From an uncultured Actinomycetes bacterium (GTDB lineage: Bacteria > Actinomycetota > Acidimicrobiia > IMCC26256 > PALSA-555), in contig CAVSWH010000023.1 of the NCBI GenBank assembly GCA_963731625.1, positions 96,174 through 160,173 on the forward strand: DNA of 64,000 bases, in the 5' to 3' direction. Below are positions 3,239 through 63,570 of this stretch, piece after piece (the first letter of the stretch is position 1; each line of letters opens with the position of its first letter). The notes below the pieces were generated by a model, which saw only the letters and a program-made list of their open reading frames with translations, was not told the origin of the DNA and made no database searches. The position numbers and the translations under genes were made by a program.

Positions 3239-3438
3239 GGGTCGATGACCTTCCCAGCCCCACACCGCCCGCGACCCGGCCTGATCACACTACATGACTC
3301 CAACCACAATGAAAAGGGGCCCAACACCAGCCACAGGCGTCGGCTCGGTCGCTGGGGCACGCCCGGCGCCATCGGCCGGGGTGGCGCGGGCCCACCCACG
3401 CGGGGTTGAGGCCGGCTCGTCGCCGGCCCACCGCCCCG

Positions 3439-3717
3439 TCAGGCCGGGAACGGGGCGAGCCCCAGCCGCTTCCGGACCTCGGGGCGCCGGAGCGGGGGGA
3501 CGTTCTTCGGCGGCTGACGCCGCTCCGGCGCGAGCGCGAGCAGGCGCTCGGTGATGCCGGCGATCTCGTGCGCGGCATGGTGCATCGCGTCGGCGAGCGC
3601 GGCGTTCGGCTTCGCGACGCCCGTGACCTTGCGCACGTACTGGGCCGCGGCGGCCTCGATCTCCTCGCGCGTCGCCGGCGGTTCCAGTCCACGGAGCTCG
3701 GTAATGTTTCTGCACAT
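3439..3717 (-). CDS. DUF2277 domain-containing protein
   Basis: 92-aa ORF. The N-terminus MCRNITELRGLEPPATREEIEAAAAQYVRKV matches the conserved start I recall for the DUF2277 family. Confidence 0.8.
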   Translation of the reverse strand: MCRNITELRGLEPPATREEIEAAAAQYVRKVTGVAKPNAALADAMHHAAHEIAGITERLLALAPERRQPPKNVPPLRRPEVRKRLGLAPFPA

Positions 3718-3747
3718 GCCGTCAGTCTACGGCGGCGCGTCGCGACC

Positions 3748-4836
3748 ATGACCCAGCCGACCGAAGGCATGAAGCGCGGCGGGTACTACGACGCGCATTC
3801 CGAGTACCAGCAGCGCGTCGCGGCCTCGGGCATCGGGCTGCTGTCGCCGCTCCTCGACGCCGTGACCGTCCCGCCGACCGGTCCGGTGCTGATCGTCGAC
3901 TACGGCTGCTCGAGTGGCGCGAACTCGATCGCGGTCGTCGCGGAGTCTGTGCGGGTGCTGCGCCGATCCGATCCCGAGCGGGAGGTCGTCGTCGTCCACG
4001 ACGACCTCCCCACCAACGACTTCCAGGCACTCTTCGCGAACCTCCGGGACCGTCCCGACAGCTACCTGCGGCTCCCCGGCGCCGACGTGCTCTCCCTCGC
4101 CTCGGCGATGTCGTTCTATGACGCCGTCGTCCCGTTGCGGCGCGTCCAGCTCGCCCTGTCGTTCTCGGCGGCGCACTGGCTGCGGGAGGAGCCGGTCGCG
4201 CCGGTGCCGGGCAGCTTCCTCATCGCCGACGCGACGGGCGACGACCGCGTCGCGCTCGCCCGCCAGGCCGACGCCGATTGGACGCGCTTCCTCGAGATGC
4301 GCGCGTCGGAGCTGGCGCCCGGCGGGCTGCTGTTCGTGCAGATGATCGGCACGGAGGCCGACGGCGGCGCCGACCGCGTGACCGCGGCGCGGCTGCTCCA
4401 CGCGATGCACGACGTCGCCGAGGCGATGGTCGACACCACCCAGCTCGACATCGGGGCGTTCCACGGGTTCGTGTTCCCGACGTACATGCGGACCGTCGAG
4501 GAGGCCGTCGCGCCGCTCGACCGGGCAGGCTCACCGGTCCGGGGCGCGTTCGAGGTCGCGCTCGCCCGCGTCGAGCCGGTCGCGAACCCCTACGACGAGG
4601 CCTATCGGCGACACGGTGACGCCGAGGCGTATGCCGAGCAGTACATCTCGTTCGTGCGCGCCTTCAGCGAGTCGAGCCTGCGGGACGGCCTGTTCGCGCA
4701 CGGCAGCCGAGGCGGCTCGCCCGAGCAGACCCTGGACGAGTTCTACGCCGAGCTCCGCCGGCGGACGGCCCTCGATCCCGACTGGTCGAGGTTCGAGGAC
4801 TGGACCTTGACGGTGGCGCTCACGCGGACCGGTTGA
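3748..4836 (+). CDS. SAM-dependent methyltransferase, SABATH / Methyltransf_7-like
   Basis: In-frame ATG at 3748 inside ORF 3406..4836; the upstream part of that ORF overlaps the DUF2277 gene on the other strand. The blocks MKRGGYYDAHSEYQQRV, VDYGCSSGANS and DDLPTNDFQALF correspond to signature blocks of plant carboxyl methyltransferases. Confidence 0.8.
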   Translation: MTQPTEGMKRGGYYDAHSEYQQRVAASGIGLLSPLLDAVTVPPTGPVLIVDYGCSSGANSIAVVAESVRVLRRSDPEREVVVVHDDLPTNDFQALFANLRDRPDSYLRLPGADVLSLASAMSFYDAVVPLRRVQLALSFSAAHWLREEPVAPVPGSFLIADATGDDRVALARQADADWTRFLEMRASELAPGGLLFVQMIGTEADGGADRVTAARLLHAMHDVAEAMVDTTQLDIGAFHGFVFPTYMRTVEEAVAPLDRAGSPVRGAFEVALARVEPVANPYDEAYRRHGDAEAYAEQYISFVRAFSESSLRDGLFAHGSRGGSPEQTLDEFYAELRRRTALDPDWSRFEDWTLTVALTRTG

Positions 4837-4896
4837 CGCGGGCCGCCGGCCCCGCACGCGGCAGCCCGGCCCGAGGGCGGCGCGACCGGGGAGCGG

Positions 4897-5802
4897 CTAC
4901 CCCGTCGCGGCGGTCCCGATCGTCCCGGGGTTCGGCGCCCCGGCAGCCCGGTACGGCGACATGTCGATGCCGGGATAGCGCTCGGCGACGTCGCGCCGTG
5001 TCTGCTCGTTCCAGTAGGGGTCGCCCGGCCGCGGGAACCCGAAGAGGTCGCGCTCGCGGACGCTGCACTGCGGGATGAGCTTCGCCCACCGCTGCGGCGC
5101 CTGCTTCGGCCAGGCCATCTTCCCGGCCCAGGTCATGCCGCGGCGCTGGTAGTCGGCCAGCAGCGAGAACCGAGCACGGCCCGGGGCGGCGAAGTCCGAG
5201 CCACGGTGGAGGATGTCGGTGCGGTAGGCGAGCAGGCTGCCGGCGCGTGCCGTCGCGGCGACCTCGACGTCCGCGAGGGCGCCGAGCTCCAGATATAGCG
5301 GCGTGTAGGGGACGTCCTGGCCGTCGGCGTAGGGGACGATCCGCGTCGGCCCGTCGTCGCGGTCGACGTCGGACAGGTAGATGAAGGTCGTCAGCTGCTG
5401 GTAGGTCTGATCGTCCCTGGGGACGACGAGGCTGTGGCTCCCGTAGTCACGGTGGAGGGGCTGCTCGTAGTTGACCGCCCCGGCGTACTTCGCCCAGAGC
5501 TCCACCTTGTAGAGGTGCAGGTCGGTCGTGGCGAGGAAGCGCTCGGCCGCGTCGACGAGATCGGGGTGGAACGCCAACCGGTTGAGGTTCCAGGATCGGT
5601 ACGGGAACTCGTCGACGCCGGCGAACTGGCTCGCCGCGTACTTCGCGTGGCCGGCCGGGTCGGCGAAGTACTCCTCGGGCTTCGGGTAGTGCAGCCACAG
5701 CGCGTCCTGCGCGGCCCGCAGCTCGTCGGGGTCGAGGAACCCCTCGACGATCGTGAACCCGCGCTCGCCGATCTCCTCGAGTGCCGCGTCCGGGACTCGC
5801 AT
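4897..5802 (-). CDS. phytanoyl-CoA dioxygenase (PhyH) family Fe(II)/2-oxoglutarate oxygenase
   Basis: 301-aa ORF. N-terminus GFTIVEGFLD, the HRDYG metal-binding region and a distal HRGSD histidine are typical of the PhyH family. Confidence 0.85.
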   Translation of the reverse strand: MRVPDAALEEIGERGFTIVEGFLDPDELRAAQDALWLHYPKPEEYFADPAGHAKYAASQFAGVDEFPYRSWNLNRLAFHPDLVDAAERFLATTDLHLYKVELWAKYAGAVNYEQPLHRDYGSHSLVVPRDDQTYQQLTTFIYLSDVDRDDGPTRIVPYADGQDVPYTPLYLELGALADVEVAATARAGSLLAYRTDILHRGSDFAAPGRARFSLLADYQRRGMTWAGKMAWPKQAPQRWAKLIPQCSVRERDLFGFPRPGDPYWNEQTRRDVAERYPGIDMSPYRAAGAPNPGTIGTAATG

Positions 5803-9446: not shown

Positions 9447-11318
9447 TCAGCTCGCGTCCGGCGCCGACGCGCGGCGCGCCTGGCCCCGTCGACGACCACG
9501 AAGGCTCGCGTCGAGCGTCGTCTTGCGCATCCGGACCGAGACGGGCGTCACCTCGACGCACTCATCGGATGTCACGAACTCGAGCGACTGCTCGAGCGAC
9601 AGCGTCCGCGGCGGGGCGAGTCGCACGAGCTCGTCGGCGGACGCCGCCCGATGGTTGGTGAGCTTCTTCTCGCGCGTCGGGTTCACGTCGATGTCGTCGG
9701 CACGGGAGCTCTCACCGATGATCATGCCCTCGTACACCTCAACGCCTGGTCCGATGAAGAGCTCGCCACGTTCCTGGAGGCTCATGAGCGAGTAGGCGGT
9801 CGCGGCACCGGCCCGGTCGGCGACGAGGCTGCCGCTCCGGCGCGAGCGCAGCTCGCCGAGCCAGGGCTCGTAGCGGTCGAAGACGTGGTGCAGCAGCCCG
9901 GTCCCCTTCGTCTCGGTGAGGAACTCGGTGCGGAACCCGACGAGACCCCGCGCGGGCACGAGGTACTCGAGTCGCACCCACCCGCTCCCGTGGTTGACCA
10001 TCGACTCGAGCTGGCCCTTGCGGGACGCGAGGAGCTGGGTCGTGGCCCCGAGATATTCGTCGGGCACGTCGATCGCCACACGCTCCATCGGCTCGCACAG
10101 CCGGCCGTCGACTTCGCGGGTGACCACCTCGGGCTTGCCGACGGTCAGCTCGAACCCCTCCCGACGCATCGTCTCGACCAGCACCGCGAGCTGGAGCTCG
10201 CCGCGGCCCCGCACCTCCCACGCGTCGGGCCGCTCGGTGGGGAGGACGTGCAGCGACACGTTGCCGACCAGCTCGGTGTCGAGCCGGCTCTTGACCAGCC
10301 GGGCGGTGAGGTTCTTTCCCTCGCGGCCGCTGCGGGGCGACGTGTTGACGCCGATCGTGATGGACAGGCTGGGATCATCGACGTGGATCACCGGCAGCGG
10401 GGTCGGTCGCTCGACGTCTGCGAGCGTCTCGCCGATCGTCACGTCGGGGAGGCCGGCGATCGCCGCGATCTCGCCGGGCCCGGCCGTGTCCGCGTCGACG
10501 CGCTCGAGTGCCTCGGTGACGTAGAGCTGCGTGATCCGGACCGGCTCGATCGTGCCGTCGGCGCGACACCACGCGACGGGCTCGCCGCGCCGCAAGGTTC
10601 CGTGCCGCACGCGGCACAACGCGATGCGCCCGACATAGGGCGATGCGTCGAGGTTGGTGACGAGGGCCTGCAGCGGGTGGTCGGGGTCGTACTGCGGCGC
10701 GGGAATGTGTTCCAGCAGCAGCTCGAGCAGCGGCTTCAGTCCGCCCTCGCCCGCGATGCCGGGAAGCTGCAGATCCGGGTCCGTGGGATCGAGCGACGCC
10801 CGGCCGCTGCGCGCGTTGCAGTAGACGATGGGGAACCCGATCTGGTGCTCGTCGGCGTCGAGGTCGAGGAACAGCTCCTCGACCTCGTGGACGACCTCGG
10901 CGGCACGGGCGTCGCCGCGGTCGACCTTGTTCACGACGAGCAGGACCGGGAGGCGGGCCTCGAGCGTCTTGCGCAGGACGAAGCGCGTCTGCGGCAGCGG
11001 GCCCTCGGCGGCGTCGACGAGCAGCAGCACGCCGTCGACCATCGTGAGGCCGCGCTCCACCTCGCCTCCGAAGTCGGCGTGACCCGGCGTGTCGACGATG
11101 TTGATCTTCACGCCGCCGTAGCGCACCGCCGTGTTCTTCGCCAGGATCGTGATGCCCTTCTCGCGCTCGAGGTCGGTCGAGTCGAGCACGCGCTCCACGA
11201 CCTGCTGATGGTCACCGAACGCGCCGGTCTGGCGGAGCATGGCGTCGACGAGCGTCGTCTTGCCGTGGTCGACGTGGGCCACGATGGCCACGTTCCGGAT
11301 GTCGTCGCGCGCGCGCAT
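9447..11318 (-). CDS. typA: translational GTPase TypA/BipA
   Basis: 623-aa ORF. GTPase motifs [17 protein letters not shown] and NKVD are present. EF-G-like domain order and a length of about 620 aa are typical of TypA. Confidence 0.97.
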
Positions 11319-11487
11319 CGAGGGCTTCCGTCGGGGGGGTACACCAAGTGTACACGTCCGGTCTCGCGTCTCGGGTCAGGGTTCCCGCCCGTGGCGTGCG
11401 TCACACGGTGACCGCGCTCCTCCCGCGCGACGGCGCGCCCGCCGTGCGACGACCGATACTGGTGCCGTGGGGGACGGGAGCACCCGG

Positions 11488-12360
11488 GTGGCGACCGCCG
11501 CCGCGGTGGCGGCGACCGTGCTCGCCGCGCTGCTCGTGCCCGCCGGGGCGTCGCCCGCGCGGGCGTCGAGCACCGGCCCCTTCTGCGCCGCGATCCGAGC
11601 CTTCAACGGCGCCCGTCCGACCTCGAGCACCGAATCGGTCGCGGCGTTGCAGACCCTCGGCCGCGCCGCCCCGTCGGATGCCCGGGCGGCGCTCACGACG
11701 ATCGCCCGCGCCGTCCAGCACGGCGATCCGTCGAGCGTCCTGGCCCAGGCGGCGACCGCGCAGGCGAGTCAGCCCGACGCGCTGGATCAAGCCGCGACGA
11801 CCGTCGCGCGCGACGCGTTCGGTCGGTGTCAGCTCACCGTCAACTTCCTGGCCGTCATCCCGTCCGGGCTGTCGGACCAGAAGGTCGCGGTGCGCCTCTG
11901 GGGCCGGACGGTGTGCACGAAGCTCGTCGACTGGGGCGAGTTCCTGATGGGCGCAGGCAACGGCCTGCTGACGCCGCCGGGCGGGGTCACCGTCACGCTG
12001 TCCGAGATCCAGACCGAGATCTCGGACTTCCTCGACACGGCGATCCTGCGCACGGCCGAGCTGCTCAACGCGGTGGACGAAGCCGGCACGCCCTCCATCG
12101 CGAAGGGTCACGCCATCGCGTCGTCGATCCGTGACGGGGTGCTGCAAGCCCAACGGACGTTCCAGGCCGCGCAGCTGACCGTGAAGGCGCTGCCCGACGA
12201 CCCGCAGCGCTTTCAAGTCGGGGCGCAGAGTCTCGTGCAGACGCTCGACGACACCGGCCGGCGCGTCGCGGCGTTGGTGCAGGACGCGGAGCAGCAGTAC
12301 AAGGTGCGGGCGCTCGACACCGCGCTGCGCGCCGAGCCCGCGTGCATCGGCGTTCGGTGA
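11488..12360 (+). CDS. secreted hypothetical protein
   Basis: GTG at 11488 (GGGAG 7 nt upstream) inside ORF 11239..12360 gives the signal-like N-terminus VATAAAVAATVLAALLVPAGASPARA. The remainder is a helical Ala/Gln-rich protein. Confidence 0.65.
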   Translation: MATAAAVAATVLAALLVPAGASPARASSTGPFCAAIRAFNGARPTSSTESVAALQTLGRAAPSDARAALTTIARAVQHGDPSSVLAQAATAQASQPDALDQAATTVARDAFGRCQLTVNFLAVIPSGLSDQKVAVRLWGRTVCTKLVDWGEFLMGAGNGLLTPPGGVTVTLSEIQTEISDFLDTAILRTAELLNAVDEAGTPSIAKGHAIASSIRDGVLQAQRTFQAAQLTVKALPDDPQRFQVGAQSLVQTLDDTGRRVAALVQDAEQQYKVRALDTALRAEPACIGVR

Positions 12361-12400
12361 ACCGTGCCCGAGCGCGGGCGACGGTGCGTGATGCGACGGA

Positions 12401-12432
12401 GGCTGCGGCGGGCCGATCGGCCCACCGCAGCC
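12401..12432. terminator. GC-rich hairpin between convergent genes (candidate bidirectional terminator)
   Basis: GGCTGCGGCGGGCC-GATC-GGCCCACCGCAGCC forms 14 pairs with one mismatch and a 4-nt loop. It lies between the stop at 12360 (+) and the csp stop at 12442 (-). There is no U-tract, as is common in high-GC actinobacteria. Confidence 0.55.
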
Positions 12433-12441
12433 CCGAGTCCG

Positions 12442-12693
12442 TCAGATCGGACGAACGTTCTGGGCCTCGTCGCCTTTCCGGCCCGGGCCGACGTCGAACT
12501 CCACACGCTGACCCTCGGTCAACGTCTTGAACCCCGTCCCCTGGATCGCGGAGAAATGCACGAACACGTCGTCCATTCCCTCGCGGGAGATGAAGCCGTA
12601 CCCCTTTTGCTCGTTAAAGAACTTCACAGTGCCTGTAGCCAACGGATTCGCGTCCTTCTTGCTGATTGCTGCTGGATTGCCGGGACGGTCCAT
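12442..12693 (-). CDS. cspA: cold-shock protein (CspA family)
   Basis: The C-terminal 66 aa, [65 protein letters not shown], carry the RNP1/RNP2 motifs. The ATG at 12691-12693 gives 83 aa. The alternative TTG at 12640-12642 (GAAGGA upstream) gives the canonical MATGTVKFF start. The local GC dip is typical of highly expressed csp genes. Confidence 0.9.
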
Positions 12694-12982
12694 TGACACG
12701 GCCTCGGTGGCGCCAGTGTAGGAAAAGCGTCGCAGCGTCTCAAGCGGTGGGCTCACCGGACCGGCGAGGGCGGACGCGCCGTGTCGAGCAGGTCGAACGT
12801 GCTCGACGACCCTGTCAAGGGCCAGACGGGATCGCCGCGCGTGAACGCGCGGCGAGCCCGTGCGGTCGGGACCTTGCGGTCGCTGCAGCGTCCTCATGCC
12901 GCGCGAGCCGCGGTCAGCGGCGCCCAGCACACGACGCGCGACGCGCCGGCGCCGCCGTGGAGCGCTCGCGCGGATTGTTCGG

Positions 12983-13018
12983 CTGCTGTTCACTTCTCGG
13001 TCTCTCTCGGAACAGCAG
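12983..13018 (-). terminator. hairpin downstream of the nitroreductase gene / in the csp upstream region
   Basis: Perfect 9-bp inverted repeat CTGCTGTTC ... GAACAGCAG with an 18-nt loop, starting 23 nt beyond the nitroreductase stop (13041) on the minus strand. It could equally be part of a long csp 5' UTR. Confidence 0.35.
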
Positions 13019-13040
13019 AGCGCGTGTTCGCTCCGGTCGC

Positions 13041-13736
13041 TCAGCCGGACGCGCCGAACGCCGGGCCGTCGAAGCGGTCGCGGGTCGTGAAGTCGCCGAC
13101 CGCCGTGCGGCGCAGTGATCGCGGCTGACGGACCGGGTGCCCGAGGGCAAGCAACGCGGCGATCACGAACTCGTCGGGCACGCCCAGCAACGCCCGAACC
13201 TCGGGCTCCCGGCGAGCGAGCATCGTGGTCAGCACGCCGCCGAGGCCCGCGTCGCGCGCCGCGAGCAGCACGTTCCACACGAACGGGTACACCGAGGCGC
13301 CACCGATCAGCGTGTAGCGGTCGAGGTCCCGATCCGTCGCCGCGAGCGCGCGCAGGTCCGCGAGGACGAGGAGCAGCGCGGGGACCTCGTCGAGATGCTC
13401 GGCAAACCCGCCGGGACCGGCCGCGGCGGCCTCGGCGATCGCCGTCGCCCCGGCGAGCGCCGTCCGCTCCGCGGCGCGGTCGGTGACCGGCGCGAACGGC
13501 ACCAGACCGGCCCCCGCCAGCGCGAGGTACTCGTACCACCCCGCGCAGTAGAGGTCCCGCAGCGACCGTCGGACGGTCGGGTCGCTCACGACGATGAGGC
13601 GCCAGCCCTGACGGTTCCCGCCGCTCGGCGCGAACCGGGCCACGTCGAGCACGGCGAGGAGCTGCTCGTCGCTGACCGGCTCCCCCGTGAACTCCCGCAC
13701 CGCGCCGCACGTCCGCATCGCGTCGCTCAGCTCCAT
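13041..13736 (-). CDS. nitroreductase family protein
   Basis: ATG at 13734-13736 preceded by GAGGAGG. The product starts [46 protein letters not shown], the classic nitroreductase N-terminal signature. Confidence 0.85.
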
Positions 13737-13866
13737 GTCGCCTCCTCGCGGCCGCGCCGTCCGCCTCGGTGGCGTGGGATCGCGGCCGGTACATTCTGGA
13801 ACGTCGACCCCGTCCGCCCACGGTGTCGACCCACGCGGCGGTCCCGCCGCTGCCCCAAGGAGCACC

Positions 13867-15117
13867 ATGCGCTACGTCGAAGCGGCCGGCCTGCGGGTCT
13901 CGGCGATCGGGCTCGGGTGCTGGCAGTTCGGATCTCACGACTGGGGCTACGGCAACGCATACGGCGAGACGACCGCCGTCGAGCTCGTGCACCGGGCGCT
14001 CGACCTCGGGGTCAACCTGCTCGACACGGCGGAGGTCTACGCCCATGGCGTGTCGGAGGCGATCGTCGGTCGCGCGATCGAGGGACGGCGCGACGAGGCG
14101 TTCGTGGCCACGAAGGTGCTGCCGGTCTGGCCGACGGCGTCGCGGGTGCACGAGCACGGACGGCTCTCGGCGCTCCGCCTCGGCGTCTCGCTGATCGATC
14201 TCTACCAGGTCCACTGGCCGAACCCGGTCGTGCCGCTTCGCTCGACGATGGGCGGGATGCGCCGCCTACTCGACGACGAGATCGTCGCGCACGTCGGCGT
14301 GAGCAACTTCTCCCCGTCGCGCTGGGAGGCCGCCGAGCGTGACCTCGGTGGGCCGGTCGCCTCGAATCAGGTGCACTTCAGCCTCCTGCAGCGCAAGCCC
14401 GACCGAGGCAACGTCGAGTACGCGCAACGCCGCGACCGTCTGGTGATCGCCTATAGCCCGCTCGAGCAGGGGGTCCTCGGTGGCAAGTACGACGCCGCGC
14501 ACCCGCCGGCCGGCCCGGCGCGCCGCAACAACCCGCTGTGCCTGCCGGAGAACCTCGAGCGGGCGACCCCCGTCATCGAGGCGCTCCGCCGGCTCGCCAA
14601 GGCGCACGACGCGACGCCGGCCCAGGTCGCCCTGGCCTGGCTGCTCCGCAAGCCGAACGTCATCGCCATCCCGGGCGCGAGCTCGGTCGCGCAGCTCGAG
14701 CACAACGTGGCCGCCGCCGACCTGGACCTCACCGACGCCGAGCACGAGGAGCTCACCGCCGAGAGCGACCGCTTCGAGCCCCTCGGCGGTGTCGCGACCG
14801 GGATGGGCATGCTGCGGGCCCGACACGCCGCCTGGGGGCGCGCGGGGCCTCAGGCCGGTCGGAACCGGTGGCCCGGCTGGGCGAGTGCCGCCGGGACGAG
14901 CGCCGCGCAGGCGCTGATGGCGTGCGCCGCGGCCGGCGTCGAGAGGTTGAGGGATCCGGCGGTCGGGTCCCAGCCGTGTGCCTCGAGGCACTGCACGAGG
15001 CGCGCGACCGCGCCCGCCGATCCCAGCCGGATGCCCGGCGGGATGCCGCCACCGGTGGCGGGCGTCGCCGACACCTTCGCCTCGCGGATCGCGCGGGCCT
15101 GCCCGGCGCAGTCGTAG
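13867..15117 (+). CDS. aldo/keto reductase (with about 100-aa unusual C-terminal read-through tail)
   Basis: ATG at 13867 gives [22 protein letters not shown]..., with the [10 protein letters not shown] and IDLYQVHWP blocks. The AKR-like sequence ends near 14800, but the first in-frame stop is at 15115-15117. Confidence 0.85.
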
Positions 15118-17045
15118 AGTCCGCTCGGGCCGGACTCGCCCCAGCGCGCGGCATCGACGGGCGCGCAGACCTGGCTCACGAACGCGCCGACGTTCGTGCC
15201 GCCGAACCCGCCGCTCGGCGCGACGTAGCGCAGCTCGTGGTGCTGCACGAGATCGGCGAGCGCCGACGGGGTCATGGCCGGGTCCGTGCCCTGGAAGCCG
15301 CCCATCGCCATGACCGACGCGCCGGCGATGATCGCCGGCGCGGCCTGCCGTGCGTTCGGCACGGCCACGATCCATCGCGCGCCGCCCTGACGTCGGCGCA
15401 GCCAGGCCAGCTCGGCGGCCGAGAACCCCGTGACCCCGCCGCCGCGCCCCGCGACCCGGCCGCGCCCCGGGAACGCGAACCCAGCGCCCGGGTTCGGCGT
15501 GAGCCCGCCCGCGTCGCCGGACACGGGCCGCGCCGCCGGCTCGGTCCCGTTCTGGGCGTGCCGCACGCCCGAGGTCGCCCAGGCCGTCGGCGCGGCGAGC
15601 GCGATGACGAGGCCCGTCCCGGCGAGGATGGCGAGGGTGCGCCGGCCGACCCGGCCCCACACGGCGGCCGCGACCGCGGCCAGCGCGACGACGCCGAGTG
15701 CCACCGGGACGAGCGTGCGCAACGTCTGGTACGCGTCGACGCGGCGGAGCAGCACGACCTGGAGCACGGCGGTGCCGGCCGCCCCCGCGGCGACGGCCAC
15801 GGCCGCCACCCGACCGCCCCGACAGACGAGCTCGACGCCGATCCCGACGAACGCGGCGACCGCCGGTGCGAACGCGGCCACGTAGTAGTTGTGGAACGTC
15901 CCCTGGGTGTACGCGAAGACGAAGTAGCTCACGATCCCGACGCCCGCCCACAAGATGAGCGAGCCGCGCTCGGCTGCGCCCAGGCGTCGACGGAACATCA
16001 GTACGAGGCCGCCCAGCAGCGCGAGCGCGGCGAGGACGAACAGCCACATCACCTGGTCGCCCATGCCCGCGTTGAACAGCCGGCCGATCCCCGGTGCGCC
16101 CCCCGACCCGCCGAACCCGCGGAACGAGCCGGCGAACTGGCGCGCCACGCCGCCCGGTCCGCTCGTCGAGCCTGTGAGTCGACCGAAGCCGTCGTAGCCG
16201 AACACGACGCTCTGGGTCGTGTTGTTCGTGCTGTTGCCGACGAAGGGCCGGCTGGACGCGGGGACGATGTCGATCGCGGCCATCCAGCCGCCGGCGACCA
16301 CGACGAACGCGGCGCACGCCAGCGCGATGTCGCGTGCGCGCTTCCACCAGCCCCCGGGTCCCGTCAGGAGATAGGCCAGGAAGAGGCCGGGCAGCACGAC
16401 GCCGCCGACGAGCCATTTGGCGAGGAATCCGAGGCCGCACGCCACGCCGGCCAAGATCAGCCAGCGGGGCTGCTGGTCGCTGATGGCGCGCTGCGTCGCG
16501 TACGCCGCGGCCACGAGACAGAGCACGAGCGTCGCGTCCGGGTTGTTCGAGCGGCTGACCGCCAACGCGACGGGGGTCAGTGCCAGCGCGAGGCCGGCCA
16601 CGCGCCCGGCGCGGGCACCCCACGCACGGCGAACGGTCGACATGAGCAGCCACACCGACCCGGCACCGGCGAGCACTGACGGCATGAGCAGTGACCAGCT
16701 CGAGTAACCGAAGGTGCGTGCCGACAGCGCTTCGAGCCACAGGGCCAGCGGCGGCTTGTCGGTCGTAATCCAGCCGCCCGGGTCGAACGAGCCGAACAGG
16801 AAGTTCTTCCACGACGTCGTCATGGAGCGCGCGGCCGCGGCGTAGTAGGTGTTGCCGTAGCCGTTCTTCGACAAGCCCCACGCGAAGAGCACGAGCGCCG
16901 CGACGGTGATCCCGAGCTCCGGCGTGACGCGGCGGAGGCGCGCCCCACGGGACGTGGCGTCGCAGACGGGCACGGGGTCGCGCCCGTCGACGGAACCGCT
17001 CAGGGCGTCGGACGGACCGGCGATGACGGGTGTCGGATCGCTCAC
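14850..17045 (-). CDS. glycosyltransferase family 39 (ArnT/PMT-like GT-C) membrane protein
   Basis: The GTG at 17043-17045 overlaps the upstream stop (GTGA). N-terminal block GNTYYAAAARSMTTSWKNFLFGSFDPGGWITTDKPPLALW is followed by more than 10 predicted TM segments and a soluble C-terminal domain ending ...LYDCAGQ.... Confidence 0.85.
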   Translation of the reverse strand: MSDPTPVIAGPSDALSGSVDGRDPVPVCDATSRGARLRRVTPELGITVAALVLFAWGLSKNGYGNTYYAAAARSMTTSWKNFLFGSFDPGGWITTDKPPLALWLEALSARTFGYSSWSLLMPSVLAGAGSVWLLMSTVRRAWGARAGRVAGLALALTPVALAVSRSNNPDATLVLCLVAAAYATQRAISDQQPRWLILAGVACGLGFLAKWLVGGVVLPGLFLAYLLTGPGGWWKRARDIALACAAFVVVAGGWMAAIDIVPASSRPFVGNSTNNTTQSVVFGYDGFGRLTGSTSGPGGVARQFAGSFRGFGGSGGAPGIGRLFNAGMGDQVMWLFVLAALALLGGLVLMFRRRLGAAERGSLILWAGVGIVSYFVFAYTQGTFHNYYVAAFAPAVAAFVGIGVELVCRGGRVAAVAVAAGAAGTAVLQVVLLRRVDAYQTLRTLVPVALGVVALAAVAAAVWGRVGRRTLAILAGTGLVIALAAPTAWATSGVRHAQNGTEPAARPVSGDAGGLTPNPGAGFAFPGRGRVAGRGGGVTGFSAAELAWLRRRQGGARWIVAVPNARQAAPAIIAGASVMAMGGFQGTDPAMTPSALADLVQHHELRYVAPSGGFGGTNVGAFVSQVCAPVDAARWGESGPSGLYDCAGQARAIREAKVSATPATGGGIPPGIRLGSAGAVARLVQCLEAHGWDPTAGSLNLSTPAAAHAISACAALVPAALAQPGHRFRPA

Positions 17046-58985: not shown

Positions 58986-59783
58986 TCAGCGGGTGAGCCC
59001 GGCCGCGCGGTCGGGCACGACCGCGTACCCGTCCGGGGAGGGGCGGAGGTAGCCGTCGTCGGGTGGGCGCGCCGGGAACGACTCGATCGGCTGGGGCACC
59101 GGCTGGTACGGCACGACGCTCAGCAGGTGCGCGATGCAGTTGATCCGGGCGGCGCGCTTGTCGTCGGCCTCGACCGTGTACCAACGGCACTCGGGGATGT
59201 CCGTGCGCTCGAACATGGCGTCCTTGGCGCGCGAGTAGTCCACGTAGCGCTGCCGGGACTCGAGGTCGATCGGGCTCAGCTTCCAGCGCTTCAGCGGATC
59301 GTGGAGGCGGGCCTGGAAGCGGCGCTCCTGCTCCTCGTCGGAGACCGAGAACCAGTACTTGACGAGCAGCAGCCCGTCGTCGACGAGGAGCCGCTCGAAC
59401 GTCGGGCACTGGCGCAGGAAGCGCGCGTACTCCTCGTCGGTGCAGAAACCCATGACGTGCTCGACGCCCGCCCGGTTGTACCAGGAGCGGTCGAACAGGA
59501 CGATCTCGCCGGCGGCGGGGAGGTGCTCGACGTAGCGCTGGAAGTACCACTGGGTGCGGCGACGATCGGACGGCACACCGAGCGCGACGGCGCCCGCGTA
59601 GCGGGGGTTGAGGTGCTGCAGGACCCGGGCGATGACGCCGCCCTTGCCGGCGGCGTCGCGTCCCTCGAAGAGCACGGCGAGGCGCGCGCCGCGCTCGCGG
59701 ATCCACGCCTGCATCGCGACGAGCTCCGTCTCGAGGCGCTGCATCTCCTGCTGGTACACGTGCCGAGGCAGCCGCGCCGCCAT
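58986..59783 (-). CDS. ppk2: polyphosphate kinase 2
   Basis: 265-aa ORF. Walker A FEGRDAAGKGG, plus the PPK2 blocks YFQRYVEHLP, LFDRSWYNR and KRWKLSPIDLES. Confidence 0.93.
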   Translation of the reverse strand: MAARLPRHVYQQEMQRLETELVAMQAWIRERGARLAVLFEGRDAAGKGGVIARVLQHLNPRYAGAVALGVPSDRRRTQWYFQRYVEHLPAAGEIVLFDRSWYNRAGVEHVMGFCTDEEYARFLRQCPTFERLLVDDGLLLVKYWFSVSDEEQERRFQARLHDPLKRWKLSPIDLESRQRYVDYSRAKDAMFERTDIPECRWYTVEADDKRAARINCIAHLLSVVPYQPVPQPIESFPARPPDDGYLRPSPDGYAVVPDRAAGLTR

Positions 59784-59862
59784 CGACTCAACCTACCCGC
59801 CACGTCGCGCGCCGGTTCCGTGCCGATGCCTCCGTCCGAAAGGGCACCGGTATCGTGGGTGC

Positions 59863-60423
59863 ATGCGTCGTTCGTGGCTCGTGGTCGGCATCGCGGCGCT
59901 CACCGTCATGCTCGCCGCGTGCGGCTCGTCGTCGTCCACGTCGTTGAAGCCGGAGGGGCCGAACTCCCCGGTCGCGACGGTCGCGCCCCGGCCGTCCGGG
60001 CCGGACCCGTCGGCGTCCTCGAAGATGGTGTGCGCGTCGGAGGCCCAGCAGGAGCTCGCCTCGAGCCTCGGGGTCACCCCGACCCAGGTCACGACGCCGA
60101 CCTGGGTGGACCACGACTACAGCTGCACCTACGTCTACCCGGACGGCTCCTTCACCCTGTCGGTGAAGGAGCTGGACAGCGCGGCGCTCACGGCCGGCTA
60201 CTTCAACGCGCTCGCGGCGCTGGACGGCCGCCAGGCCGGTCTCGCCCTCGCGGCCGGCGCGTTCGTGACCACGAACGGCTCGGTGGTGGCCCGCAAGGAC
60301 TGGAAGGTGCTGTTCGTCGACGTGTCCCATCTGCCGCCGTCGTTCGGGAATCCGCCCCAGGACCAGAAGGACACCGCGATCAGCATCGCGGCCACGATCC
60401 TGTCGTGCTGGAGCGGCGCCTAA
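59863..60423 (+). CDS. lipoprotein, function unknown
   Basis: ATG at 59863 inside ORF 59608..60423. Signal plus classical lipobox: MRRSWLVVGIAALTVMLAAC-GSSSS. Confidence 0.7.
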   Translation: MRRSWLVVGIAALTVMLAACGSSSSTSLKPEGPNSPVATVAPRPSGPDPSASSKMVCASEAQQELASSLGVTPTQVTTPTWVDHDYSCTYVYPDGSFTLSVKELDSAALTAGYFNALAALDGRQAGLALAAGAFVTTNGSVVARKDWKVLFVDVSHLPPSFGNPPQDQKDTAISIAATILSCWSGA

Positions 60424-60448: not shown

Positions 60449-62014
60449 TCAGGACTTGCTGGGCAGCACCCGGAACGCGCCGCGCATGAACGGGTGGATG
60501 CGACAGAAGTACGTGTAGGTGCCGGGCGGCAGGTTGCGCGGCACCGACCAGGTGACCGCGCCGGAGGCGGGCGGGCCGCCGTGGCCCAGCTCGGCGGAGT
60601 CGAACTGGATCTTGGCGTTCGGGATCGGGTAGGCGATGCCGAACGACGCGTCACAGGGCGCGGCGCACGCGGTGATCGTGTGGTAGATGCCCTTCGACGC
60701 GTCGTCGTTGCGGAAGGTCAGCGTCCCGCCCTGCACGATCGCGGGAACCGTCGTGTTGCCGGCGGCCATGTTCCCCTGCGCGTACGCGAAGTCCATGATG
60801 GGGATGACGGTCCCGGACGGGACGACGCGCGACGACGCCTTCGTCAGGTCCGTGTAGTCGCTCGAGCGCTTCCCGCCGTGCTGGTCGTTCTCCGACAGGT
60901 GGCCGTGGGTGAGCTCACCGCTGGCGTCGACCGGGTGCGCGAACGGGTTCGTGCCGCCGCTCGTGACGCCCGGCGCCATCCACACCACCATGATCCCCAT
61001 CGACTCGTACCACGACGCGTCCTTCGTGTCGTAGGTGGTGCTGATCGACAGCACGTCACCCTTCTGCACCGTCGGGCGCCACGACGACGGCGTCCCGGTC
61101 ACGGCGAAGTCCCACGACACCTTCCCCGCCGGCTCGAAGTAGTCCGCGACCGACTCGAAGAGGTGCACCGTGTCCGACGAGCCGGGCTTGGCCTTCCCCC
61201 GGGGCGCGTGCGCGCCCGCCCGGGTGAGCCACAGGTCGTCGTGCATCCCGCCCGGGTGGACGTGGCCCGCCGTCGTGAGCAGCACGCCGTCCTCGGGGAC
61301 CACCCACTCGTTCTTGGCGATGCCGGCCGGGTACGGGTCGCTGGCGTCGTCCGGGTAGGTGAACTGGCCGTCCTTGCCGTGGCCCTTCAGCGCGTTGAAC
61401 ACCGGGTACCCGGAGCCGTTCTGCACGTCCATCCAGATCGGGATGGCCGGCTTCAGGTTCGTGGCCATCGGCGACGTCGCCGGGATGAGGTCGATGTCGT
61501 AGGTGATCCAGACCTGGTCGGGCGTCGCCAGGTTGTTGTGGAGCATCCAGTTCAGGACCCACGAATCCGAGGTGTGGTACGCGTACCCGTACCCGGCGGG
61601 CAGCGACATGATCGTCTTCTCCTCGCCGGCGGCGAAGAAGCGCTGCGGGCCCGGCTCCGTCGAATCCTTCGCGGAGAAGTTGATCCACACCCCGTGGTGC
61701 AGATGGATGACGTTCACCGGCGGGACCGTTCCGTCGGCGCGGCGCAGGTTCGTCCGCATCCCGACGATGTAGCCGTCGACGGCCGGCTGGGGGATGCGAC
61801 GCGTGAAGCTGATGCTGTTCTGGCCGGGCCGCACGGTGAGGGGCCCGACCTCGTAGTGGAGCCGCTCCGCGCCCGCCGGCACCGGGTTGAGGTTGGCGAT
61901 CGGGTAGCGCGACGGCTGCTCGCCCGACGACGTCGTCGCCGACGCGGCCCCCGCCCCGACGGTGCCCACGGTCAAGACGATGGCCGCGAGGACCGTCCAC
62001 CCCCCACGCGGCAT
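60449..62014 (-). CDS. secreted copper protein: PHM/DBH-like putative monooxygenase region fused to a C-terminal amicyanin-like cupredoxin domain
   Basis: 521-aa ORF with signal peptide MPRGGWTVLAAIVLTVGTVGAGAASA. The C-terminus GTYTYFCRIHPFMRGAFRV closely parallels amicyanin GTYDYHCTPHPFMRGKVVV (Cys, His and Met ligands), with an upstream His in GIYHTITA. The N-terminal roughly 400 aa carry HH...H...HxH...M motifs (see findings). Confidence 0.85.
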   Translation of the reverse strand: MPRGGWTVLAAIVLTVGTVGAGAASATTSSGEQPSRYPIANLNPVPAGAERLHYEVGPLTVRPGQNSISFTRRIPQPAVDGYIVGMRTNLRRADGTVPPVNVIHLHHGVWINFSAKDSTEPGPQRFFAAGEEKTIMSLPAGYGYAYHTSDSWVLNWMLHNNLATPDQVWITYDIDLIPATSPMATNLKPAIPIWMDVQNGSGYPVFNALKGHGKDGQFTYPDDASDPYPAGIAKNEWVVPEDGVLLTTAGHVHPGGMHDDLWLTRAGAHAPRGKAKPGSSDTVHLFESVADYFEPAGKVSWDFAVTGTPSSWRPTVQKGDVLSISTTYDTKDASWYESMGIMVVWMAPGVTSGGTNPFAHPVDASGELTHGHLSENDQHGGKRSSDYTDLTKASSRVVPSGTVIPIMDFAYAQGNMAAGNTTVPAIVQGGTLTFRNDDASKGIYHTITACAAPCDASFGIAYPIPNAKIQFDSAELGHGGPPASGAVTWSVPRNLPPGTYTYFCRIHPFMRGAFRVLPSKS

Positions 62015-62060: not shown

Positions 62061-62537
62061 TCAGGTGGGTCGGACCGCTTGCGTGATGCCGACGGGCGCG
62101 AGCGTCGCGTACTTCACGACGTCACCCGGCGTCGTCGCGTGCACCATGAGCCCGTTGCCGACGTAGAGCCCGACGTGCTGGTTCGGGTCGGCGGGGAACA
62201 CGAGGTCGCCCGGCTCGAGCTGGGTCAGCGCCACCTTCGGGAACATCGCGTACTGCGCGCCGCTGAAATGGGGGAGCGAGAGCCCGCCGGCGGCCCAGGC
62301 CATCATCGTGAGGCCCGAGCAGTCGAAGCAGCTCGGCCCGGTCCCCGCGTAGCAGTAGGGCTTCCCGACCTGCGCCTCGGCGTACGCGACAGCGGCCGCG
62401 GCCTGCGGGCTCGGCGGGGGCGGCGGCCCGCCCGGCGCCGGGGCGACGCACGCCGCGGCACCGAGCCCGAACGCGAGCACCAGCGTGACGATCGCCAGGC
62501 GGCGGCCGGCCCGGGCGGCGAGTAGGGAAGTCAGCAT
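62061..62537 (-). CDS. NlpC/P60 family peptidoglycan endopeptidase
   Basis: ATG at 62535-62537 (GAGGG 8 nt upstream). Signal peptide with a possible lipobox (LGAAAC). Catalytic Cys context is FDCSGLTMMAW; His context is HVGLYVGNGLMVHA. Confidence 0.88.
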   Translation of the reverse strand: MLTSLLAARAGRRLAIVTLVLAFGLGAAACVAPAPGGPPPPPSPQAAAAVAYAEAQVGKPYCYAGTGPSCFDCSGLTMMAWAAGGLSLPHFSGAQYAMFPKVALTQLEPGDLVFPADPNQHVGLYVGNGLMVHATTPGDVVKYATLAPVGITQAVRPT

Positions 62538-62727
62538 GTCGGGAACCCTCAGCGAACGCGAACGTTCTGTCTCCGCCTGCCCCACTGCCGGTATCGGCCG
62601 GCCCAGGAGGTGACCTGAGCCACGATCGGGGTCGGGTGGCACACGCGCCGCCCGCGGCCGTTACCGTTGGCCCCTTCGCTGCCTGTCCGCCCCGCATCCG
62701 CCCGGCGGCTGGCGCAGGGAGGCCCGG
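62538..62727 (-). promoter_or_regulatory. long GC-rich leader upstream of the NlpC/P60 gene; candidate cis-regulatory RNA (possibly c-di-AMP/ydaO-type riboswitch)
   Basis: 190-nt non-coding gap. The minus-strand RNA contains GCGGGGCGGAC, GAAGGGGCCAAC and CCCGACCCCGAUCGUGGCUCAGGUCACCUCCUGGGC. These loosely resemble the conserved ydaO blocks (GGGGACCCA, GGGGUGAAUC, CCCGACAGCUAACCUCG) as I recall them. Not verified. Confidence 0.25.
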
Positions 62728-63570
62728 ATGCCGCCGAACCCGCCCCCGGACGAACCGGACGAAGCCGCCCGGTCGTTCGGCCCGGCGCGGCCCAAGCGGC
62801 TCGAGCCGCCGCCGCCCATCCAGCACCCCGGCCTCGCGAAGGCGCACCCCGACGCCCCGCCCGAGGAGGTGGCACGCCACTCGGGCGTGCGGATCCTGCA
62901 CCCCAACGCCGAGGCGAGCCCCGACGCCGAGGCGCCCGTCGCACCGGTCGCGCCCGTCCACGACGCCGAGCTCATCGACCTGCCCGTCGAGGGGGACGAC
63001 GACGCGGCGGCGACCACGCCCGTCGCGGCGCCCCCCGTCCCGGTCGTGGCGGCGACGGGCACCCGCGACAGCGTGCTCGGCGTCAACATCGACCGCGGCG
63101 TCGCCTTCTTCGCCGTCGTGGAGCCACCCGCGACGCCGCGGATGGATGCCATCGAGGAGCTCCGCCCCGACTGGGAGATGGACCCCCGCGAGATGGTCGC
63201 CGACTACGCGGAGCGCGCCACGTCGACGCTGCGGGATCTCGGCGTCGGCACGATCGCGCTCGTGCGGCCCGTGCGCTACACGAACTGGACGTACCGCAAC
63301 GCGTTCGAGCGGGTGTCGCTCGAGACCTGCTTCCTCCTCGCCGCGCACCGTCTCGACCTCGCGTACGACTCGGTCGGGACGAACCACGCGGCGAACACGG
63401 TCGGGCTCCCGATGAAGGGCTTGAGCGACACGCTGCGCACGAAGCTGCGCATCGAGCGCTCGGCCGGCTGGCCCGACCGGTGGCCGGCCCTTCTCGCGGC
63501 CGTCGCCGTGCTGCTGGAGCGCCAGCACATCGAGCTACGCGACTACGCCTGGCAGCGGCCCCGCGCCTGA
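62728..63570 (+). CDS. hypothetical protein (Pro-rich N-terminus, compact C-terminal domain)
   Basis: 280-aa ORF. The first roughly 110 aa are Pro/Ala/Glu-rich low-complexity sequence. The C-terminal roughly 165 aa (SVLGVNIDRGVAFFAVVE ... TIALVRPVRYTNWTYRNAFERVSLETCFLLAAH) look globular. Confidence 0.65.
   Translation: MPPNPPPDEPDEAARSFGPARPKRLEPPPPIQHPGLAKAHPDAPPEEVARHSGVRILHPNAEASPDAEAPVAPVAPVHDAELIDLPVEGDDDAAATTPVAAPPVPVVAATGTRDSVLGVNIDRGVAFFAVVEPPATPRMDAIEELRPDWEMDPREMVADYAERATSTLRDLGVGTIALVRPVRYTNWTYRNAFERVSLETCFLLAAHRLDLAYDSVGTNHAANTVGLPMKGLSDTLRTKLRIERSAGWPDRWPALLAAVAVLLERQHIELRDYAWQRPRA

Follow-up and report, generated by a model that had tools for sequence, protein, structure and literature searches.

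The textbook examples of non-coupled binuclear copper monooxygenases are PHM, DBH and TBM. In animals PHM makes amidated hormones and DBH noradrenaline; the route by which electrons reach the CuH site and then cross to the CuM site is still debated. To our knowledge, all members characterised so far come from eukaryotes, depend on ascorbate, are rich in disulfides and are difficult to produce. A gene within a 64,000-nucleotide stretch of DNA from an uncultured member of the Actinomycetota (the whole stretch is referred to as the window) raises the question whether a related enzyme exists in bacteria and draws its electrons from a blue-copper domain of its own. A sequence-only reading of the window had proposed a secreted PHM/DBH-like two-copper monooxygenase fused to an amicyanin-type domain. 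Of this proposal, the fold, the CuH site, the cupredoxin, the fusion and the export signal stood up to the analysis reported here, whereas the expected Pfam match, the pairing of the CuM ligands and a substrate hint taken from a neighbouring NlpC/P60 gene did not. The reading we favour, at a probability of roughly 0.6, is a copper oxygenase of PHM/DBH type that acts outside the cytoplasm and receives its electrons through a tethered type-1 copper.

The ORF was recovered with the exact boundaries given before (60449-62014), but on the minus strand; it starts with ATG and ends with TGA at 60449-60451. Its GC3 of 97.7 % (vs. 73 % GC in the window) and the more than 2,200 homologs of its product identify it as a real gene. 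Homologs number more than 2,000 sequences (more than 2,200 by homolog search), and relatives occur in at least 575 species-level genomes; the hosts are uncultured Actinomycetota, strain IMCC26256 also carries an ortholog (CP011489.1), and family members are labelled "hypothetical" at NCBI and "plastocyanin" at JGI. The combination of a PHM/DBH-type core with a blue-copper tail was not found described in the databases and literature searched, and a scan of this high-GC region for promoters and terminators detected none. The features of the gene are as follows.

60449..62014, minus strand: complete gene for a 521-aa protein with predicted export, PHM/DBH-like core, His-rich linker and cupredoxin (ORF list and translation)
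61937..62014, minus strand: predicted signal peptide, residues 1-26 (MPRGGWTVLAAIVLTVGTVGAGAASA, followed by TT; direct reading of the sequence)
61415..61882, minus strand: predicted beta-sandwich domain 1, residues 45-200, corresponding to PHM domain I with CuH (AF2, Foldseek, hhalign)
61694..61705, minus strand: H104-L-H106-H107, proposed CuH His pair and family-specific H104 (alignment to PHM H107/H108)
61538..61546, minus strand: M157-L-H159, proposed third CuH ligand H159 and family-specific M157 (H159 on PHM H172)
60959..61414, minus strand: predicted beta-sandwich domain 2, residues 201-352, corresponding by fold to PHM domain II with CuM (Foldseek TM)
61256..61264, minus strand: H251-V-H253, proposed CuM His pair at a strand end before a Gly-Gly turn (conservation)
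60998..61006, minus strand: E337-S-M339, with M339 as proposed Met ligand of CuM on the final long core strand (conservation)
60824..60958, minus strand: linker, residues 353-397, holding a conserved His motif
60872-60910, minus strand: motif T-H370-G-H372-L-x-E-N-D-x-H379-G-G in the linker, invariant in 41 homologs
60452..60823, minus strand: cupredoxin (type-1 blue copper) domain of amicyanin type, residues 398-521 (hhalign, Foldseek, family profile)
60653..60682, minus strand: H445, probably the fourth ligand of T1, with C450-A-A-P-C454 after it in an insertion of ~25 aa (conservation)
60485..60505, minus strand: C504-R-I-H507-P-F-M510, type-1 copper ligand loop (aligned to amicyanin C92/H95/M98)

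All motifs on which the proposal had been built are present at the residues assigned to them (HLHH 104-107, MLH 157-159, HVH 251-253, ESM 337-339, H445, CRIHPFM 504-510). Their conservation was followed in a close alignment of 41 homologs (54-83 % identity) and in a divergent set of cluster representatives (32-51 % identity). Every proposed ligand is invariant in the former, and the six proposed catalytic ligands are 86-99 % conserved in the latter, which agrees with the expectation that the His/Met ligands be retained among homologs; the full ligand motif is present in 42 of the 56 representatives that cover all sites. Joint loss of ligands was considered as a signal and discarded, the variants being sporadic and resembling sequencing or frameshift errors. 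Further conserved residues that had escaped attention are H104, M157, E337, H370/H372/H379 and C450/C454.

The core (residues 45-352) was modelled by AlphaFold (AF2) with a pLDDT of 93.0 and a pTM of 0.89, and the best 28 Foldseek matches of this model in the PDB are all PHM or human DBH (E 1.4e-9 to 2.4e-7, TM 0.45-0.59, ~335 aligned columns), as had been anticipated for the fold. The full-length model yields the same ranking. Since the TM values of 0.57-0.59 were obtained with a 308-residue query over ~335 aligned columns, both domains must superpose. Residues 45-352 are thus predicted, at the level of the model, to share the two-beta-sandwich fold of PHM (rat PAM residues 45-356; PDB 1PHM, 1SDW, 6ALA; E 1.4e-9, TM at most 0.59) and of human DBH (4ZEL; E 2.5e-9, TMq 0.59 to chain A), in which this core likewise forms part of a multidomain protein.

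At the sequence level the distance is large. The window protein shares ~10 % identity with PHM, and the Pfam families PF01082 and PF03712, in which the sequence-only reading had expected the core to be found, give no match at E up to 1, neither in the window protein nor in the 105 homologs scanned. Pfam and NCBIfam scans of the 521-aa protein returned no catalytic domain, sequence and profile searches of the PDB returned nothing other than C-terminal loops of amicyanins, a shallow alignment of the family compared by hhalign with one PHM sequence gave no match, and the global profile-profile alignment of the family with PHM is weak (27 % probability). The core is also free of Cys, so that all disulfides of PHM are absent.

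The next fold class found with the core model comprises viral double jelly rolls and PNGase (E 6e-5 or worse). By fold, the core could also belong to a metal-free double jelly-roll of the PNGase F type, i.e. a glycan- or peptide-binding hydrolase with an incidental cupredoxin-like domain (7zgn, E 2.8e-4; 1pnf, E 6.1e-4). The scores of the PNGases fall short of those of PHM/DBH by five orders of magnitude, neither the CuH alignment described below nor the invariance of the His/Met pattern has a counterpart among them, and the cupredoxin retains all of its copper ligands, which together render such a protein extremely improbable.

For domain 1 the correspondence extends to individual residues. 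The family profile aligns with PHM domain I at 84.5 % probability (hhalign, P 6.9e-6), pairing H106/H107/H159 with PHM H107/H108/H172, while cross-domain controls remained at 1 % probability or less; the assignment of HH plus H to CuH in the sequence-only reading is thereby corroborated, and profile alignment establishes H106, H107 and H159 as the predicted equivalents of the CuH ligands. Among the divergent representatives, H106 is kept in 95/99, H107 in 94/99 and H159 in 119/120. In contrast to PHM, the putative site is accompanied by two additional conserved residues, M157 (105/111) and H104, the latter position being occupied by His in 81/99 and by Met in 15/99 representatives, an alternation that, judged from sequence, is typical of a Cu(I) ligand.

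The case for domain 2 is of a different kind. As in PHM, the HH+H of the first domain is followed in the second by HxH and then M, in the same order and at similar spacing, and conservation among the divergent representatives is high (H251 and H253 each 103/119; M339 90/105; E337 89/106). Profile alignment with PHM domain II, run locally and globally, with and without the variable insertion 266-300, gave 3-5 % probability throughout (reversed-profile controls, 0.3-0.4 %); HxH was not paired with H242/H244, and the strand of M339 was aligned to that of PHM M314 with M339 two residues out of register. Thus, the earlier equation of HxH plus M with CuM holds with respect to conservation (~86 %) and order but not to the residue pairing with PHM H242/H244/M314, and H251, H253 and M339 are regarded as candidate CuM equivalents.

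Between core and tail, the linker carries three His that are conserved to differing degrees across the divergent representatives (H370, 83/94; H372, 55/94; H379, 54/93), and the AF2 model is of low confidence at residues 371-383. The tail aligns with amicyanin 1AAC (residues 18-105) at 96.5 % probability (hhalign, P 7e-10), matches amicyanin 4p5r in Foldseek (probability 1.00, TMt 0.61) and, as family profile, retrieves amicyanins from the PDB at E 0.004. The type of domain had hence been recognised correctly, while its size of ~90 aa had been underestimated; it spans ~124 aa (398-521), including the ~25-aa insertion at the amicyanin His53 loop, where AF2 confidence is low (residues 450-484). 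Of the four T1 ligands proposed, Cys504, His507 and Met510 fall on those of amicyanin (kept in 58/59, 58/59 and 59/59 representatives), whereas His445 is offset, standing at the start of the insertion three residues after the position aligned to amicyanin H53. H445 (68/75) has no other conserved His in its vicinity, and C450 (66/74) and C454 (67/74) are retained to a similar extent. The PF00127 match expected for the window protein was not obtained, weak matches being present in 18/41 homologs; Cupredoxin_1 matches at E 0.094 (13.2 bits, cut-off 27) and the NCBIfam amicyanin model at 19.1 bits (cut-off 110), i.e. the domain scores below the amicyanin/cupredoxin thresholds of both collections.

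The union of core and cupredoxin, the central architectural claim of the sequence-only reading, was found in 42/42 intact divergent members, establishing from the sequences an apparently obligatory fusion. Fourteen apparent exceptions were dismissed as frameshifted gene calls on account of their frameshift-like tails. One relative, P0149 (1,211 aa), known from a single metagenomic gene call, carries in addition a PQQ-like beta-propeller and another cupredoxin.

Compared with PHM, a bacterial (actinobacterial) protein thus carries a fused type-1 copper domain in place of soluble ascorbate. DBH, which also uses ascorbate, has an N-terminal DOMON and a C-terminal dimerisation domain, in contrast to the C-terminal cupredoxin and lacking DOMON of the window protein. 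Amicyanin of Paracoccus denitrificans (1AAC) shares the cupredoxin fold and the identical C-x2-H-x2-M spacing (CTPHPFMRG vs. CRIHPFMRG in the window protein); it is a free protein, whereas the domain studied here is covalently tethered and bears the insertion with the conserved CxxxC at the N-terminal His-ligand loop. Via its cupredoxin, the full-length model also finds NirK 6hbe and the multicopper oxidase 9cck. NirK with an extra domain (6HBE) and the Nitrosopumilus multicopper oxidase with a C-terminal cupredoxin (9CCK) follow the same design of a carrier fused to a copper catalyst, but in these enzymes the catalytic module, too, is built from cupredoxins (T1/T2 or trinuclear cluster), while that of the window protein is of the unrelated PHM/DBH fold.

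The predicted export signal is a classical one (MPRGGW, a hydrophobic stretch, and ASA followed by TT), in agreement with the signal peptide noticed initially, and a hydrophobic N-terminal segment is present in 87/89 full-length homologs. A lipobox-like Cys occurs in 71/89 of these, the clade of the window protein having an AxA site instead. The protein is accordingly predicted to be secreted in the source organism and lipid-anchored in most relatives; like PHM, it would reside in an oxidising, non-cytoplasmic compartment.

In the favoured reading, the protein would be a three-copper redox enzyme acting outside the cytoplasm, with a core that would place it among the non-coupled binuclear copper monooxygenases of the PHM/DBH class. 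H106, H107 and H159, possibly aided by H104 and M157, would form a CuH-type site that accepts electrons, and H251, H253 and M339 a CuM-type site that binds O2, with the His-rich linker connecting the core to the amicyanin-type blue copper (H445, C504, H507, M510). An external donor located at the membrane surface would reduce the type-1 copper one electron at a time, and the type-1 copper would hand these electrons to CuH, replacing the ascorbate of the animal enzymes, and CuM would then activate O2 for H-atom abstraction from, or hydroxylation of, a substrate. That the sites hold copper, that the CuM ligands are equivalent to those of PHM, that the chemistry is that of an oxygenase, that electrons flow in this direction and that the cupredoxin acts as their donor is what we infer here.

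Electrons might also run the opposite way: the core would oxidise a substrate, and the cupredoxin would pass the electrons on to the respiratory chain, the part that amicyanin plays for methylamine dehydrogenase. Amicyanin receives its electrons from a dehydrogenase, and the blue copper of the window protein is specifically of the amicyanin type, down to the identical C-x2-H-x2-M loop. The propeller and second cupredoxin of P0149 would suit this direction of flow as well, but they derive from one metagenomic gene call. We know of no PHM/DBH-fold enzyme that acts as a dehydrogenase, and the conserved His2Met and His3 sites fit an O2-activating pair, so that we consider the reversed flow quite unlikely.

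Should the oxygenase with its tethered relay prove active, the bacterial family, with the same predicted core, free of disulfides, and an obligatorily attached type-1 copper, would offer a spectroscopically addressable system of intramolecular electron injection for studies of mechanism and a route to ascorbate-free copper hydroxylation biocatalysts. It would also give a clue to the function of the uncharacterised plant and fungal SURNod19 proteins, and the present database labels ("plastocyanin", "hypothetical") would be corrected.

SURNod19 (PF07712) is the sole non-cupredoxin Pfam family that recurs among the homologs (5/41 and 5/64 members, i.e. 10/105; best E 6.3e-6). The window protein itself gives no match, and all matches in the family lie below the gathering score of 25 bits. 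They are centred on the strand-HxH-GG hairpin, i.e. the H251/H253 segment, as seen in P0123 (E 7.9e-4, 18.8 bits) and P0190 (13.3 bits). The group, compared here by sequence match only, comprises plant MtN19/NOD19 and fungal secreted Nod19 proteins, which, like the present family, bear a signal peptide and are secreted or membrane-bound; they are described in the literature as proteins of ~400 aa with signal peptide, SURNod19 domain and C-terminal hydrophobic helix, and no cupredoxin is mentioned. Plant Nod19 has been linked to oxidative and copper stress, and bean Nod19 is a target of the copper-responsive miR398 with an expression that tracks copper status (PMC3882225).

De novo clustering of the neighbours of the family gene in 80 loci revealed no conserved operon besides a YceI lipocalin gene, which lies downstream in 17/74 loci and is missing in 77 % of loci, the window included; none of the neighbourhoods points to a substrate or donor. 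This partner bears on a further alternative, in which the same three copper sites perform other chemistry, the T1-fed copper reducing or dismuting a small molecule such as nitrite, O2, superoxide, peroxide or a lipid peroxyl radical, much as NirK and multicopper oxidases do. The wiring of T1 to a catalytic copper indeed follows the logic of these enzymes, with 6hbe and 9cck as secondary fold matches via the cupredoxin, but the catalytic fold is that of PHM/DBH rather than a cupredoxin trimer, and all characterised members of the PHM/DBH fold known to us are monooxygenases. In Burkholderia, YceI together with a redox protein (cytochrome b561) detoxifies lipid-derived peroxyl radicals (PMC9113575), and Nod19 as the nearest Pfam family is tied to oxidative and copper stress (PMC3882225). 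Against this alternative stand the absence of YceI from most loci and the His2Met site, a signature of copper that activates O2 to abstract an H atom (PMC12164859). On balance, small-molecule chemistry of this kind appears unlikely.

The protein might, alternatively, have no catalytic role and serve the sequestration, buffering or delivery of copper in the envelope. Conserved His and Met are unusually dense (HxHH, MxH, HxH, ExM, HGHxxxxxxH, and in addition CxxxC), the protein is predicted to be extracytoplasmic, and neither a conserved metabolic operon nor recurrent cop or cus genes, copper chaperones or P-type ATPases were found beside the gene in the 80 loci, the latter result speaking against copper handling and the former in its favour. 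Expression of bean Nod19 according to copper status (PMC3882225) would also suit copper handling. An intact cupredoxin with its full Cys-His-Met type-1 site is, however, built for electron transfer and not for storage, and the domain 1 ligands occupy positions equivalent to the catalytic ones of PHM; copper handling is therefore considered quite unlikely.

Within the favoured oxygenase reading, the nature of the substrate can be narrowed to some extent. R240, N316 and Y318, which we take to be the residues that anchor the peptide carboxylate in PHM, correspond in a hand alignment of the motifs to A249, I341 and V343 of the window protein; because the anchoring residues thus have no counterpart, a glycine-extended peptide is an improbable substrate. 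A tentative and, taken as a whole, rather unlikely elaboration would have a self-sufficient, ascorbate-independent PHM/DBH-type monooxygenase whose blue copper is fed by the quinone pool of the membrane, in about a quarter of the lineages via a co-translated, membrane-anchored YceI lipocalin holding an isoprenoid quinol, and whose substrate is a lipid or an envelope component instead of a glycine-extended peptide, with SURNod19 belonging to the same superfamily. If so, quinone and YceI would supply electrons in bacteria as cytochrome b561 and ascorbate do in eukaryotes, and the plant and fungal SURNod19/NOD19 proteins, in which the HxH hairpin recurs, would be unrecognised members of one copper-oxygenase superfamily.

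The immediate neighbour in the window is the following gene.

62061..62642, minus strand: NlpC/P60 peptidase gene, upstream of the family gene (Pfam NLPC_P60, E 2.3e-21)

It ends 46 nt upstream on the same strand, as observed before. The peptide or cell-wall substrate that this proximity had been taken to hint at was abandoned together with the peptidase as functional partner: the gene pair does not recur across the loci compared, NlpC/P60 adjoining the family gene in 2/80 loci, both from close relatives. It is a neighbour in the source lineage only and lies outside any conserved unit. The other recurrent neighbour clusters comprise ABC ATPases, SDRs and genes in lineage-specific synteny (e.g. 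UvrA, UvrB).

The minus-strand gene at 60449–62014 is regarded as real, since its ORF is intact, its GC3 reaches 97.7 % (window GC, 73 %) and more than 2,236 relatives were retrieved in a search of 5.8 billion proteins. One cluster of these, from Acidimicrobiia MAGs, is 100 % identical to the window protein; public annotation of the family reads "hypothetical protein" or "plastocyanin". The product comprises a core (domain 1, residues 45–200; domain 2, residues 201–352), a linker (353–397) and a cupredoxin (398–521):

60449–62014, minus strand: family gene of 521 codons, ATG start, TGA stop at 60449–60451
60872–60910, minus strand: linker motif between core and cupredoxin, residues 369–381, invariant in close homologs
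60653–60667, minus strand: CxxxC motif C450-A-A-P-C454 in a ~25-aa insertion of the cupredoxin, conserved in 66/74 and 67/74 homologs, respectively

The N-terminus (MPRGGW, a hydrophobic stretch, then ASA↓TT) has the sequence of a classical signal peptide. An N-terminal hydrophobic segment in 87/89 full-length homologs and a lipobox-like Cys in 71/89 therefore predict the family proteins to be extracytoplasmic and for the most part lipid-anchored.

The sequence-only reading had proposed an enzyme like peptidylglycine alpha-hydroxylating monooxygenase (PHM) or dopamine beta-hydroxylase (DBH), with copper sites CuH and CuM, fused to an amicyanin-type domain. All motifs it quoted were found at their residue numbers and its architecture is largely right: fold, CuH, cupredoxin and fusion stand, the expected HMM match and the substrate hint do not, and CuM and the oxygenase chemistry are putative. 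A Pfam scan of the window protein yielded no match to PF01082 or PF03712, an outcome that would count as refutation under the first check named in the sequence-only reading, but these models are too distant (~10 % identity); the sole Pfam match was Cupredoxin_1 (E 0.094). The NCBIfam amicyanin model scored 19 bits (cut-off 110), and in the PDB, searches with the sequence and with a profile matched only the C-terminal loop of amicyanins and nothing in the catalytic core.

Structure prediction recovered the proposed double beta-sandwich. PHM and human DBH rank first in the PDB (E 3e-8 to 1e-6) for the full-length AlphaFold model (41 sequences, pLDDT 74.5), and the top 28 Foldseek PDB matches of the core model (residues 45–352; 107 sequences, pLDDT 93.0, pTM 0.89) include no chain other than PHM or DBH (E 1.4e-9 to 2.4e-7, ~335 aligned columns, TM 0.45–0.59 under either normalisation). 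In the model, both beta-sandwiches must superpose on PHM/DBH, since a TM of 0.57–0.59 on the 308-residue query exceeds a single 155-residue domain. Viral double jelly-roll capsids and PNGases follow as the next fold class, from 6e-5; the reading as a metal-free PNGase-like protein is highly improbable. The core contains no cysteine, hence PHM's disulfides are absent.

The six proposed copper ligands of the core are invariant in 41 homologs (54–83 % identity) and were largely retained among divergent representatives of 50 %-identity clusters (32–51 % identical to the window protein):

H106: kept in 95/99
H107: kept in 94/99
H159: kept in 119/120
H251: kept in 103/119
H253: kept in 103/119
M339: kept in 90/105

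The full pattern is present in 42 of the 56 representatives covering all sites, exceptions being sporadic. Local profile-profile alignment used a PHM-family profile of 120 homologs (identity down to 31 %) and a rat PHM core sequence identical to PDB 4e4z_A. Domain 1 aligned with PHM domain I at 84.5 % probability (P 6.9e-6, 104 columns), pairing H106-H107 with PHM H107-H108, H159 with H172, and LPAGYGY with LPKGVGF; cross-domain controls gave 1.0 % and 0.1 %. The CuH-type site H106/H107/H159, as originally proposed, is therefore supported at residue level by sequence. Domain 2 matched PHM domain II at 3–5 % probability in all modes, also without its variable insertion (reversed controls, 0.3–0.4 %). 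Alignment was confined to the GDVL/GDIL strand and the last one; HxH was not paired with PHM H242/H244, and M339 fell two residues off M314. In the core model, HxH closes a strand ahead of a Gly-Gly turn and the Met lies in the last long strand, both as in PHM. Thus, of the proposed CuM (HxH + M), the residues are conserved but not aligned to those of PHM; conservation, strand order in the model and the two-domain superposition point to a putative CuM.

Additional conserved residues had escaped the sequence-only reading: position 104 (His in 81/99, Met in 15/99 divergent representatives), M157 (105/111) and E337 (89/106). A His/Met swap is typical of a Cu(I) ligand. Likewise overlooked was the linker motif T-H370-G-H372-L-x-E-N-D-x-H379-G-G, whose His residues are kept in 83/94, 55/94 and 54/93 divergent homologs, respectively. 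It is modelled at low AlphaFold confidence and might bind a fourth metal, or serve as a loop for electron relay or docking.

The amicyanin-type copper domain was confirmed: residues 399–517 matched the verified sequence of amicyanin 1AAC at 96.5 % probability (P 7e-10), with C504, H507 and M510 on ligands C92, H95 and M98 in a C-x2-H-x2-M loop of the same length. The domain spans ~124 aa instead of the proposed ~90 and, unlike amicyanin, has an extra ~25-aa insertion at the His53 loop. Within it lie H445 (conserved in 68/75), three residues from the position aligned to His53, and the CxxxC motif, also overlooked and in a region modelled at low confidence; C450/C454 might act as a disulfide staple or else bind an additional Cu(I). 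The cupredoxin is kept in 42 divergent representatives having both catalytic domains. Fourteen cupredoxin-less representatives were rejected as real variants, all having tails rich in Arg, Pro and Ala, as is typical of frameshifted gene calls in high-GC DNA; none of these 14 contains a heme c motif. By sequence comparison, the fusion of core and cupredoxin is thus obligatory. In the metagenomic homolog P0149 (1,211 aa), the cupredoxin is followed by a PQQ-like beta-propeller (PQQ_2, E 1e-18) and a second cupredoxin (Copper-bind, E 4e-8), an arrangement that could reflect either a genuine redox fusion or faulty gene calling.

We favour, at a probability of about 0.6, an exported PHM/DBH-type copper oxygenase whose tethered type-1 copper would pass single electrons to CuH, standing in for ascorbate. 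The same copper sites could instead reduce a small molecule or radical, which appears unlikely; electron flow in the reverse direction and copper handling without catalysis are each considered quite improbable. For the favoured oxygenase, a glycine-extended peptide is probably not the substrate, because the anchoring residues of PHM presumably lack a counterpart in the window protein, the motifs having been lined up by hand in a provisional alignment. The catalytic fold is already known; new are the bacterial, unannotated family carrying it, the obligatory domain combination and the extra conserved metal-type residues. In full-text literature searches, neither a bacterial PHM/DBH-like enzyme nor a cupredoxin fusion turned up.

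The only recurring non-cupredoxin Pfam family among homologs was SURNod19 (PF07712; 5/41 and 5/64 members, best E 6.3e-6; homolog P0123, E 7.9e-4), always under the gathering score. These matches cover exactly the strand-HxH-GG hairpin. NOD19 proteins, which are either secreted or located in membranes, have a function described as "still elusive". Bean Nod19 is a miR398 target responsive to copper (PMC3882225).

The surroundings of the family gene include:

62061–62642, minus strand: NlpC/P60 gene (Pfam E 2.3e-21), ending 46 nt upstream of the family gene
58986–59783, minus strand: PPK2 polyphosphate kinase gene, within ~1 kb downstream
~59860–60423, plus strand: ~186-aa predicted lipoprotein (MRRSWLVVGIAALTVMLAACG...), convergent, stop codons ~25 nt apart
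62728–63570, plus strand: 280-aa ORF with Pro/Glu-rich N-terminus, no Pfam match

With one genome scanned per species, at least 575 family loci were detected, the best 80 of which are all from Actinomycetota (Acidimicrobiia, Thermoleophilia and unclassified Actinomycetes), including the complete-genome record of Actinobacteria bacterium IMCC26256. The NlpC/P60 gene, correctly noted on the same strand, had been taken to hint at a peptide or cell-wall substrate; this is not supported, because it adjoins the family gene in only 2 of these 80 loci, both close relatives. When flanking ORFs were clustered de novo, one tightly coupled partner emerged: a protein of ~228 aa that combines a membrane helix at its N-terminus with a YceI domain (Pfam E 1.5e-17) and is encoded directly 3' of the family gene on the same strand in 17/74 informative loci (3-nt overlap to 26-nt gap). 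YceI loci are L004–L012, L017, L024–L026, L028, L033, L042, L049, L057 and L081 (9651–10337); one family member carries a fused YceI domain, and the 64-kb window contains no YceI gene. YceI lipocalins bind isoprenoid quinones and usually partner with cytochrome b561 (PMC9113575).

Unrelated neighbours in the window are PPK2, SDR, cupin, methyltransferase, GT-C-like mannosyltransferase and KARI genes. PPK2 recurs weakly, likewise no more than ~1 kb downstream of the family gene, in 5 other loci (including L015, L021, L027 and L031; 43–82 % identity). The predicted lipoprotein, without Pfam match, adjoins the family gene in 6/80 loci (L001–L004, L014, L029). The 280-aa ORF has counterparts in L001 and L003 (67–75 % identity) and is uncertain as a gene because alternative-frame ORFs overlap it. 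On the 4-Mb Actinomycetes MAG contig of L081, the family gene and YceI pair lies between flanks (3067–5025 and 10400–16394) with four subtilisin-like S8 peptidase genes and GGDEF/EAL genes. Two family paralogs more than 100 kb apart share contig JBAXHD010000001.1 (L019, L027), and two others one MAG (L020, L031). Three MAGs labelled Bifidobacterium (L028, L048, L051) carry genes typical of Acidimicrobiia-like freshwater/soil Actinomycetota, so that these labels are probably wrong.
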